Sequence record: MH494197.1
Length of the DNA stretch: 64,000 nucleotides
Origin: Escherichia phage CMSTMSU
Reading direction: 5' to 3' (one strand)
The notes below the pieces were generated by a model that saw nothing but the letters and a program-made list of their open reading frames with translations, made no database searches and was not told where the DNA came from. Shown here piece after piece: positions 8,944 to 42,038 of the stretch; positions within the stretch are counted from its first letter, which is position 1; each line of letters begins with the position of its first letter. The position numbers and the translations under genes are program-made.

Positions 8944-9135
8944 CATAAGTCTAAGTCTATACCCTTTTCAAATGATTTCTCTAGAACCCAAAGTTTACAT
9001 TCTTCACTCTCCAAATGCATCTTTGCCTCTTTCTGTTGTTCTATTGTACAAGACTTTATAAATTCACGCAAGGCTTCTATTGTACTTTTTATATTTTTAT
9101 GTCTTCCAGAATTGTTTCTTTGGCTTCAGCATCAA

Positions 9136-9558
9136 TTACAGATGAACTCCACCCGTGACGTTCTTCCCAAACTGTTTTGCTGGATTGTAAATTGATGATG
9201 TAGAAATGACTGCATGGATCTTATTAAACGTATCGTCTGCTTCTTGTTGGGTGTAATCACCATAAGTGTTTAGCACATTTTTGTATAGTTCATCGATTGC
9301 CTCATCATAAGTATCACCACCGCAATCTAACTCATAATCATGTGCTTGTACCCATTCATCATCTTGCTCAATGTACATAGGTGAGATGAATTCTACCCAA
9401 AATTGTGTCTTTGTATTCAGAGCTTTAAATGATTCAATGCGGTTTGTGATTGGACACACATCATGTGGTTCGATATCAATCCTTGGGGAACCATATCTCT
9501 GTTGATGAATTTAGGATGACCCAAAATCCACCAGTACTTTTCAGATGTAGTCATAGTA
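9136..9558 (-). CDS. hypothetical protein
   Basis: ORF 9136-9459 plus N-terminal extension MTTSEKYWWILGHPKF; acidic. Confidence 0.3.
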
Positions 9559-9956
9559 ATCTCCAATTAAAAGTACTGCCACTATAACAGTACTGATATT
9601 AAATGTAACGTTTCTTTTATAATCATACCCTACTGCTTTGTAAAAGTCAAACAAAGAAGCATGTTCAAATGTAGGTAATAGATCATATGGGTGCTGATAG
9701 TTCGCAATACCAACAATAGCCATCATTGATTCAGCCGTTCTGGAATTTTCACTATCCCATTCATCTAAACGCCAAAGTGAGCAAAGTACCTCGCGTTCAT
9801 GTTGCTTACCCAGAAAGAATTCAGCTTCACGGTCACGAAATGCACCTGCACTGATAGTACTTTTGTACCAGTCTTCTTCACCATAAGCTGGCATACGGAT
9901 AATATGTTTTCTTGAGCTTCACCAAAGCGGTGAAGAAATGCCACATAATCACTCAT
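9541..9956 (-). CDS. hypothetical protein
   Basis: ORFs 9765-9956 and 9541-9894 joined by a frameshift. Confidence 0.3.
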
Positions 9957-40772: not shown

Positions 40773-41174
40773 TTATAGACAGTTAAGTACTATGTCATCA
40801 AAAGTACTACTGTCAATGTTGTATTCATATAAAAATTTAAAATGTGATCCATAACGCATCATCAGATTAAACTCTTCTTCAGTATTAAATTTGTAATCAT
40901 GAAGAGTTTCAAGGGTACATGTTAAACCTAAAAACTCAATAATTTCTGATGTTACATCATTTCCTGAATTGAAGTATTTAACCCAAACACATTTTCCTTG
41001 TGGGTTGAATTTTCTATATTCTCCTTCTAGTTCTCCATTGACGATATGTGCTTTCGCACTGATTAGATTATTACTATAACGCTCTTCGTAGTAGTTCCCA
41101 TAACGAGCTTTAAGAATTGTAGGCTTCTTGGTTGGGAATAACTTAATGGAAGTTAATTCAAAACCGCACTGCAA
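40773..41174 (-). CDS. hypothetical protein
   Basis: 133 aa ORF. Confidence 0.35.
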   Translation of the reverse strand: MQCGFELTSIKLFPTKKPTILKARYGNYYEERYSNNLISAKAHIVNGELEGEYRKFNPQGKCVWVKYFNSGNDVTSEIIEFLGLTCTLETLHDYKFNTEEEFNLMMRYGSHFKFLYEYNIDSSTFDDIVLNCL

Positions 41175-41421
41175 CTCTTTGATGTACGAAATACATCCTT
41201 TTCTTTAATCACAACAAAACCAGTAAAATTCTCGGTCTTGTTTCTGATTTTCTGAATCAACAAATTCTAGTGTTTTATAAGTGACGCTTTTAGATTTTTA
41301 ATAAATGACATCATTATTCCTATGGAAACATCAATGACTGTACATGGCGTTGACTTCATCAACACCAGTCGAATTATACACGCTTCGCATGTCTAATTCA
41401 ACGAAAGTACTATGATTTGTT

Positions 41422-41661
41422 TTAATTAATATTGACGGGTTTGCTTGAGCATATTTCATCCCCAGAAAGAACAAAAAGTTTGACGCTGGTGGCCTTCACA
41501 TAGTTCATATCACGAATTCTCTTACGAGGCGAAAGCGGGTTGCTCTGTTTCTCTCTATCGCGGTTCTTGTAGCAACGGTCGTCGGTCTTAAACATCCCGA
41601 CACATAATACAAATACCATATGACCAGTACTTGTATTTGATTTCACGAATTTTGGACGCAA
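41422..41661 (-). CDS. hypothetical basic protein
   Basis: 79 aa ORF; an upstream ATG with RBS TAAGGAG at about 41699 is in another frame. Confidence 0.3.
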   Translation of the reverse strand: MRPKFVKSNTSTGHMVFVLCVGMFKTDDRCYKNRDREKQSNPLSPRKRIRDMNYVKATSVKLFVLSGDEICSSKPVNIN

Positions 41662-41920
41662 CTATTTTGTATAAATTACGACCGCAAATTTCTCATGAAA
41701 TCTCCTTAGATAATTGGTAAGGTGCGATCCTTATATGTCTATCGAGGAACTCTCTTTATCCTATTGGAGTTCTTTATACAGCCGCATTGCCGTGAGTGGT
41801 TCAAACTATGCCATCATCTAACGGGTTTCATTTGCTGTTCGTACTGAAAGGACTACTCATCTACCCTCTACTTTTCGAGTGGATTAGGCTTTAATCATTT
41901 CCATATGGAACCTTTCAGGA

Positions 41921-41953
41921 TTAAAAAAGGCGACAACATATTCTGCTGTCACC
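41921..41953 (-). terminator. rho-independent terminator
   Basis: minus-strand RNA GGUGACAGC-agaauau-GUUGUCGCC followed by UUUUUU. Confidence 0.55.
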
Positions 41954-42038
41954 TTACATTATATCATAAACTTATGGTATGTCTCAGTTGTATTCTGTTT
42001 TTCAGTGAAATTAGTTAAGATATCTGCACTTAAGCTTC

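Follow-up and report, generated by a model that had tools for sequence, protein, structure and literature searches.

The window analysed here is a 64,000-nucleotide stretch of the genome of Escherichia phage CMSTMSU (MH494197.1), whose region of interest shares 98% identity with EC.P1 and WPEC3, two Escherichia jumbo phages, and 87-92% with the Asteriusvirus phages 121Q, PBECO4 and G17. The local genes are on the minus strand, and the positions given below are window positions on that strand unless another genome is named. Between a gene of 263 amino acids (42830-42039) and the true next gene, which begins at about 41314, lies a gap of 720 bp that is taken up entirely by a single conserved RNA gene (about 41985 to 41317), roughly 0.5-0.65 kb long with predicted 5′ and 3′ ends. 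In carefully annotated relatives the orthologous interval is also gene-free over about 0.65-0.7 kb. The annotations of G17, GAP32 and Munch leave it empty apart from a predicted terminator, and CBB and BF carry no annotated gene there, while the automatic annotation of WPEC3 places tiny hypothetical open reading frames (ORFs) in it on both strands. The original prediction, made from the letters of the window alone, had described 41661-42038 as a structured noncoding stretch between a terminator and the next gene. The stretch is real and conserved, but it was drawn too narrowly and holds just the 5′ half of the RNA: the conserved feature extends about 340 nt past 41661, through the supposed ORF 41422-41661. 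What had been overlooked is that a promoter precedes the terminator hairpin, that the RNA has a 3′ half and that it belongs to a multi-copy family.

It is correct that 41661-42038 contains no ORF of 60 or more amino acids on either strand, the longest being 41 amino acids. The G+C enrichment that had been noticed holds weakly: 41700-41920 has a G+C fraction of 0.407, the mean for the window being 0.343, and ranks in the top 6.6% of 221-nt windows. The ribosome-binding site (RBS) and start codon proposed there exist as words, CTAAGGAG at 41709-41702 and ATG at 41696, but they are not a translation start, since the RBS word is the family RNA motif UAAGGGAG minus one G and the ATG is ATA in 121Q. 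We also considered Shine-Dalgarno mimicry and rejected it, the perfect UAAGGAG of the window being a one-G homopolymer difference from the family motif. As had been stated, the frame opened at 41696 does not run into ORF 41422-41661; it is a six-codon ORF. The latter, a 79-amino-acid ORF (41661-41422) that had been taken for the next gene, is spurious and sits in the 3′ domain of the RNA. It is open solely in close relatives, whereas Munch, GAP32 and every paralog have stops and frameshifts in it. The three codon positions have substitution counts of 23/23/23 and 24/17/23, without periodicity; neither the conserved frame nor the third-position bias of a protein-coding gene or pseudogene was found. 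These comparisons exclude coding. Remains of a protein gene, either the frameshifted N-terminus of ORF 41422-41661 or the small ORFs as annotated, would agree with the small hypothetical ORFs that WPEC3 and other records show here and with the homopolymer frameshifts in the neighbouring window gene. This explanation has a negligible probability, given that the ORF is interrupted in every distant orthologue (by stops and indels in other genera) and paralog, that substitutions are even across codon positions, that the careful annotations of G17, GAP32, Munch, CBB and BF leave the gap empty, and that the indels are located in hairpin loops.

The comparative alignment that the original prediction had called for shows strong covariation. 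We collected 49 distinct full-length copies after de-duplication, and their alignments show invariant blocks alternating with variable-length hairpins. A blind search for covarying columns recovered stacked helices, long-range and crossing ones included. The resulting model of 22 helices and 103 pairs was compared with slid helices and with 500 shuffles. In the 49 copies 93.2% of cells are paired, against 38-44% for slid helices and 75.3% for shuffled alignments; compensatory cells number 833, against 81-132 (slid) and 229 ± 14 (shuffled), and the covariation score is 0.462, against 0.06-0.08 (slid) and 0.155 (shuffled). On each of these three measures, all 500 shuffles fall short of the real alignment. 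Changes on both sides were seen in 69 of the 103 pairs, where the pair counts rest on structure-blind, sequence-based MAFFT alignments (A2) and the statistics ignore kinship. Compensatory pairs lie above the controls in the core and in the 3′ extension alike, as is expected of a structured RNA gene. The RNA strand is the minus strand, because of the G-U pairs and of the asymmetry in folding energy (minimum free energy z-scores of −4.83 for the minus and −1.47 for the plus strand).

The core of about 470 nt consists of two domains, both supported by covariation in the MAFFT alignment and locked by four supported pseudoknots and invariant junction nucleotides. At the start of the 5′ domain (41918-41700), helix H1 (41918-12/41850-44), with 6 of 7 pairs changed on both sides, forms a pseudoknot between the 5′ end and the loop of H4 (41856-54/41843-41). 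All five pairs have changed on both sides in H2 (41910-06/41903-899) and in H8 (41772-41747), and three of five in H5 (41838-34/41782-78). This domain further contains H3 (41887-61), a variable hairpin (41817-41792), an AUG/CAU pseudoknot across H5 (41787-85/41737-35) and H9 (41733-41718). Most of its helices have 96-100% of cells paired, and its invariant motifs are UGAG, GAAACCCGUUAG, CACGGCAAUGCGGC, GAUAGACAUAUAAGG and CUAAGG(G)AG (41709-41702). An optional "M" hairpin follows (41683-41654; GGUCGUAA...UUGCGUCC, loop UACAAnAnAG), which is missing from some paralogs and found at a second position in others. MAFFT aligns it poorly, with 56% of cells paired, and its pairing was identified by inspecting the sequences themselves, as with GGACGCAA/UUGCGUCC in 121Q paralog 4. 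In the orthologue of Escherichia phage UE-S1 (L003, about 2346-2500), a segment of about 55 nt within the 5′ domain, running from GAAACCCGUCAG to CACGGCAAUGCGGCU, is duplicated in tandem.

The 3′ domain (41637-41504) begins with H10, a 13-bp hairpin (41637-41606) in which 9 of 10 pairs have changed on both sides. The H10 loop (41623-19) pairs with a site 110 nt downstream (41509-05) to form the pseudoknot PK3, where all five pairs covary and 99.6% of cells are paired. After H11 (41602-41580), H12 (41576-72/41543-39; three of five pairs changed on both sides) crosses both H13 (41562-58/41515-11; four of five) and H14 (41555-51/41535-31), giving the fourth pseudoknot, and H15 (41528-26/41521-19) has changed on both sides in all three pairs. 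GACCGU, GAGAAAC and ACCCGCUU are invariant in this domain. A fifth contact, between the H8 loop and CUA, is weak.

A promoter with an extended −10 element was predicted at 41985-41958. It reads GAGACA, a 16-nt spacer and a TG-extended −10 (TGaTATAAT; TGATATAAT at 41966-41958), has 10 of 12 consensus matches with the TG in a consensus scan, and has a predicted start near 41951. Similarly, a TATAAT-like −10 is present in 48 of the 48 copies with enough upstream sequence, the TG extension in 46 of the 48, and TGRRAC(G) precedes. A "divergent RpoD-like" promoter class with the −35 sequence TGAAACG has been reported for phages CBB and GAP32 (PMC5259590), and the TGRRAC...TGnTATAAT motif of the RNA copies matches this class. 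The terminator-like hairpin that had been noticed on the minus strand is confirmed at 41955-41927, followed by a T-run to about 41921, with 12 pairs of which 5 are G-C. A single site of this kind is present, where 0.6 would be expected, and the promoter of the RNA itself is upstream of it. In the terminator scan this leader hairpin with its U-run (41955-41921) has the features of an intrinsic terminator, including TTTTTT after the stem, 84 nt past the stop codon of the 263-amino-acid gene, and it is predicted to be the terminator of that gene; a terminator is annotated at the same place in G17, GAP32 and Munch. In all orthologues of the window paralog, in every genus, a leader of 39-50 nt with the terminator hairpin separates the promoter from the core (H1), and in the other paralogs the core begins 4-30 nt after the −10.

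Downstream of the core, the alignments define a 3′ tail (41491-41426) made up of box 1 (41491-41478; CACCAGCGUCAAA), a U-rich stretch, a G-run (41463-41454; GGGGAUGAAA) and box 2 (41443-41426; CAAACCCGUCAAU). In most paralogs box 1 is followed by a terminator-like hairpin, and the tail also includes a CCCC-UGCG-GGGG hairpin, of which the window copy lacks the 5′ half. The two boxes (AYCNNCGUCAR) enclose the tail hairpins at a spacing of 48-87 nt. In 48 of 48 copies the purine that follows CGUCA in one box also does so in the other (16 A/A, 32 G/G and none mixed), with at least five independent co-changes on a tree built from the core alone, and A/A and G/G types can co-occur among the paralogs of one genome. 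No third column complementary to the box purine was found in the alignment. That the boxes share identity rather than complementarity suggests that they are read jointly, that they are processing or template-switch sites, that they make a symmetric purine-purine contact, or that they are paired DNA sites. We also tried a pairing of GAUGAG with the tail boxes and rejected it, the variants GUUGAG and AAUGAG being uncompensated. A divergent metagenomic subfamily has ACGAAG at both box sites instead of CGUCAR, and no isolated phage carrying it was found. In the contigs of this subfamily (L190, L192, L193, L196 and L206) we noticed a nearly unchanged 3′ domain and a much altered 5′ domain.

Three hairpins extend the RNA beyond the tail: one at 41402-41368 (GUUGAAUUAG...UAAUUCGAC), a second at 41363-41349, and a third at 41327-41317 (UUCC-AUA-GGAA) that overlaps the RBS of the next gene (start about 41314). 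In the 35 copies with this extension 82.5% of cells are paired, against 30-46% for slid helices, and the last hairpin has changed on both sides in 8 of 10 pairs. Because the extension hairpins covary too, RNA-level selection spans essentially the entire intergenic region. Within the first extension hairpin (41401-41373), about 60 nt upstream of the next gene, there is a second sigma-70-like site, TTGAAT-17 nt-TATAAT, which could be a promoter that serves the next gene independently of the RNA.

The gap is conserved at the nucleotide level in 61-69 jumbo-phage records of several genera, 61 of which were retrieved by a sensitive blastn search with the gap. Carriers found by blastn infect Escherichia, Salmonella, Erwinia, Yersinia, Serratia, Cronobacter, Pectobacterium, Xanthomonas and Klebsiella, and IMG/VR and metagenome motif scans supplied extra loci. 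Copies from other genera are 65-76% identical over about 470 nt; each genome has 4-5 such places, and these mostly carry no annotated feature. The 121Q genome has four copies on the same strand, at 90.3, 192.8, 247.5 and 326.7 kb, and related genera have five; the window copy is the orthologue of the 192.8-kb copy, and no further paralogs were found within the 64-kb window. The best match in CBB corresponds to the 326.7-kb paralog of 121Q. Copies are spaced 54-111 kb apart, are all co-oriented and occupy syntenic positions across genera. The 121Q copy at 326675-327148 lies between genes for endonuclease VII and a baseplate protein, both on the opposite strand, and this copy (paralog 3) and its orthologues in CBB and GAP32 are followed by a terminator and then by opposite-strand genes. 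Several copies directly precede genes, and these downstream genes are unrelated between copies; the copies are not found always upstream of, and co-oriented with, genes of related function, as a leader, riboswitch or attenuator would be. The genes after copies L186, L222, L056 and L027/L036/L181 also differ. By eye, candidates among them are HNH/AP2-type homing endonucleases (MEEWKAINDYEKY..., MEQWKIITGFEKYEVSNFGNVRN...), a DNA methylase and an ADP-ribosylglycohydrolase (...AIGALVGLAVGDALG), and the 3′ flank of the RNA may be an insertion hot spot. Elsewhere in 121Q (NC_025447.1), an unannotated gap of about 2 kb at 135194-137161 contains none of the four RNA copies.

Copies of the RNA also occur outside jumbo phages. 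A full-length copy with the same promoter was found in 2 of 5,426 complete E. coli genomes, LR-29-1 and EEC_W5 (nhmmer E = 9e-140), in a 10.8-kb island between ffs and ybaA. In LR-29-1 (L229; NZ_AP027515.1, 3470143-3488515) the RNA occupies positions 8960-9579 of the extracted locus, and a 44-amino-acid ORF lies just upstream of its promoter. The island holds a tyrosine integrase split by IS3, a serine recombinase and the candidate defence cassettes PDC-M45 (DuOB, DUF488 and mSLOG-DUF4326) and PDC-S16 (DUF2188). The island copy shares about 80% identity with one of the paralogs in Serratia phage BF, retains 87 of 100 model pairs and has 10 compensatory pairs relative to the nearest phage copy. 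Searches with the flanking proteins brought up no homologues in jumbo phages and, apart from the integrase fragments, PDC-M45 and PDC-S16, no informative family matches. A related island between ybaA and ffs was found in nine other E. coli genomes; it has kept the promoter and decayed tail boxes, and its RNA core is deleted. In one strain, E. coli 97.3 (L230, NZ_CP061758.1, 6950-7144), the small ORF and the TGGGATGA...TGTGATATA promoter persist, and the related island has a second copy of the same promoter type before a hypothetical gene of 518 amino acids.

Two metagenomic copies (L224, 2480-3131, and L194, 5120-5781) lie directly downstream of large serine integrases and adjoin host modABC genes and a CI-like repressor (HTH_3 and Peptidase_S24); in L194 a reverse transcriptase is 3 kb from the RNA. 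By gene content these two contigs look like temperate or integrative elements, not jumbo phages. Because the same unit of promoter, RNA and tail occurs in lytic phages, in the E. coli island and in serine-integrase elements, it is best described, from its distribution, as a portable module of lytic phages, the island and temperate-type elements. A scan of 100,000 bacterial genomes with a 16-base motif gave chance matches only, among the matches listed, and no plasmid matched the RNA.

The next gene (40773-41314) is an orthologue of G17_00509 and 121Q gp416 (phrog_16210). Relative to the 98%-identical WPEC3 its reading frame is shifted by three indels (−1 in an A-run, −2, and −1 at an A/G run), and it is either a pseudogene or part of an assembly with homopolymer errors. 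The RNA copy of the window differs from its 98%-identical relatives mainly in homopolymers and by a 9-nt deletion in the GC (CCCC) hairpin. Since the neighbouring gene has three frameshifts of the homopolymer type, the oddities of the window RNA, namely TAAGGAG for TAAGGGAG and the CCCC hairpin shortened by 9 nt, may be sequencing errors.

On this comparative evidence, window positions 41985-41317 very probably contain a real, self-contained and autonomous gene for a large, pseudoknot-rich noncoding RNA, one of four Asteriusvirus-type paralogs. The original prediction had considered a long 5′ leader, a riboregulator and an independent noncoding RNA; the evidence favours the last, because every copy has its own promoter, one 121Q paralog is flanked by opposite-strand genes, and lone copies occur in bacterial integrative elements. 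The RNA is probably a trans-acting structured RNA of mobile elements, a reading favoured by how complex the RNA is, by its invariant junctions and independent promoters, and by its upkeep outside a fixed gene context. As a tentative scheme, which may well fail in one part or another, RNA polymerase (with host sigma-70 or with a phage factor at the TGAAAC-type promoter) would make a stand-alone transcript that folds into a compact particle, and the conserved unpaired junctions would form a binding or catalytic site. The RNA would then act in trans on a host or phage factor in conflicts between a mobile element and the cell or between elements, the tail boxes would be read or processed together, and for the window copy part of the transcripts would continue into the downstream gene.

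Several points weigh against such an autonomous, trans-acting RNA. The terminator hairpin between promoter and core of the window paralog could limit its expression, the terminator-like hairpin in the middle of most paralogs makes either one or two transcripts possible, and the window copy abuts the RBS of the next gene, for which it may act as a leader. We found no transcriptome of a carrier phage in the literature searched. Furthermore, dispersed, co-oriented copies with identical direct-repeat boxes could point to a cis-acting role at the DNA level. The main rival is accordingly a cis-acting replication origin, in which a promoter-driven structured transcript would prime or open the DNA, as do ColE1 RNA II and the T4 oriF/oriG R-loops, the boxes, G-run and AT-rich stretch would be DNA sites, and integrative elements would carry a copy in order to be replicated. 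We consider an origin improbable. It would fit the 4-5 syntenic, co-oriented copies 54-111 kb apart with a strong promoter at each, the conserved G-run and direct repeats followed by AT-rich sequence, the portability of the element into islands and temperate elements, and the box identity covariation, which is the constraint expected of paired DNA sites. However, four pseudoknots and invariant single-stranded junctions far exceed what R-loop priming needs, and covariation indicates selection on RNA pairing throughout, tail extension included. In addition, the GC skew of 121Q tracks gene orientation only and gives no origin signal, no plasmid carrier was found, and no initiator gene is linked to the RNA.

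Two further roles appear less likely than an origin. A cis-regulatory leader or processive antiterminator, which would modify its own polymerase (as HK022 put and EAR do) or gate the downstream gene past embedded terminators, is suggested by the terminator-like hairpins embedded in conserved sequence in most copies, by the conserved hairpins that, in the window, continue as far as the next gene and overlap its RBS, and by the several copies that directly precede genes. It is nevertheless unlikely, since the 121Q 327-kb paralog and the CBB and GAP32 orthologues precede only a strong terminator and opposite-strand genes, downstream genes are unrelated between copies, and put and EAR elements are some seven times smaller than the jumbo-phage RNA of about 470 nt plus tail. 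We give still less credence to a selfish or mobile element at the RNA level, ribozyme-based or a template RNA, with the boxes as cleavage/ligation or template-switch sites comparable to telomerase RNA or the DRT2 noncoding RNA. Such an element would explain why the RNA unit alone is common to lytic jumbo phages, a tyrosine-integrase island and serine-integrase elements whose flanking proteins have no jumbo-phage homologues, and it would suit the strict identity covariation of the two boxes and a fold of ribozyme-like complexity. Yet recent mobility is not apparent, the positions being syntenic across genera, neither a reverse transcriptase nor a partner enzyme accompanies the RNA consistently (L194 alone has a reverse transcriptase, 3 kb off), and the Rfam ribozyme models give chance matches only (Hatchet, E = 8.4).

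A trans-acting RNA gene of this kind would be of interest beyond the locus. RNAs this large, conserved and knotted are rare, and have historically proved to be ribozymes, cores of ribonucleoproteins or, lately, RNA-only cages. The family accounts for gaps of about 0.7 kb that annotators left empty or filled with spurious small ORFs. Its carriers include cultivable jumbo phages of E. coli, Salmonella, Klebsiella, Erwinia, Serratia and Yersinia that are under development for therapy, so that genetics is feasible straight away. Handles on function are offered by the 4-5 separately conserved paralogs, by the spread across lytic phages, a candidate-defence island and temperate elements, and by the identity covariation of the boxes.

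We then compared the RNA with known families and systems. A Rfam scan had been suggested in the original prediction; at the gathering threshold, no Rfam 15 family matched anywhere in the window, with GOLLD, ROOL, OLE, HEARO, RNase P, tmRNA, 6S, group I and II introns and small ribozymes among the models searched. At E ≤ 10, the window copy and two paralogs gave unrelated matches that were inconsistent between members (Hatchet, 15.5 bits against a threshold of 51, E = 8.4; tmRNA, 5.5 against 47; ZTP, 16 against 39). A tRNA/tmRNA scan of the window found none, blastn found no similarity to E. coli chromosomal RNA genes, and the literature searched held no paper describing the family. The RNA family therefore appears to be new, having no counterpart in Rfam 15 or in that literature. 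It resembles OLE RNA and RNase P RNA in size, pseudoknotted architecture and blocks of invariant single-stranded nucleotides, but matches neither covariance model. A resemblance to RNase P RNA noted by eye (GAAACCCGUUAG and GAACCCGGCUUA, the latter of E. coli) was dropped, the word order differing and the model giving no support, as were resemblances by eye to words of the hammerhead and hairpin ribozymes, which neither models nor conserved positions supported.

The origin transcripts ColE1 RNA II and T4 oriF/oriG are likewise promoter-driven and noncoding, with several per T4-type genome, and RNA II is structured, about 550 nt long and uses a G-run. Unlike the jumbo-phage RNA, they need little conserved tertiary structure, and no plasmid homologue of the jumbo-phage RNA was found. 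P4 CI RNA and P1 c4 RNA are also RNAs of mobile elements located near integrase and immunity genes, with two identical sites (seqA and seqC in P4). They differ in being about 70 nt long and in acting by antisense pairing to two sites, whereas no third complementary column covaries with the boxes of the jumbo-phage RNA, and lytic jumbo phages have no immunity circuit. The nearest precedent comes from the Pseudomonas jumbo phage PA5oct, in which RNA-seq defined four "putative lncRNAs" (long noncoding RNAs), ORF-less, 236-619 nt long and all on the plus strand, two of them abundant throughout infection (PMC7318152). This is a distantly related jumbo phage that likewise has four ORF-less transcribed regions. 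With nhmmer we found no homology between these lncRNAs and our family; a single weak resemblance is a GC-rich hairpin at the 3′ end of ncRNA004 that recalls the tail hairpin of the family. The PA5oct lncRNAs (MK797984, L226-L228) share short motifs among themselves, such as AAGGAUGAUGCU in ncRNA001 and ncRNA004, and may be a paralogous family of their own.

GOLLD and ROOL are large ornate RNAs of prophages and phages that form RNA-only multimeric cages (bioRxiv 10.1101/2024.12.08.627333). Their Rfam models do not match the jumbo-phage RNA, and their hosts are Lactobacillales and rumen bacteria, whereas the jumbo-phage RNA is carried by phages of Enterobacterales. The latter also differs in that each genome carries 4-5 diverged paralogs, that its 3′ tail contains two identical boxes and that it is not associated with tRNAs (none lies in the window, and those of 121Q, at 72-78 kb, lie away from all copies). 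The likeness is in general design: 500-800 nt, many helices and pseudoknots, highly conserved junctions, the lack of an ORF, transcription signals of their own, and residence on phages and other mobile elements. By analogy, the jumbo-phage RNA might represent a new class of catalytic or self-assembling RNA machine for mobile-element conflicts, a speculative and rather unlikely idea. Its paralogs would then assemble into a particle or particles as the GOLLD and ROOL cages do, or it would be a ribozyme with the CGUCAR boxes as its own processing or template-switch sites, and the island copy would be a counterfeit by which the host or a satellite hinders or exploits jumbo phages.

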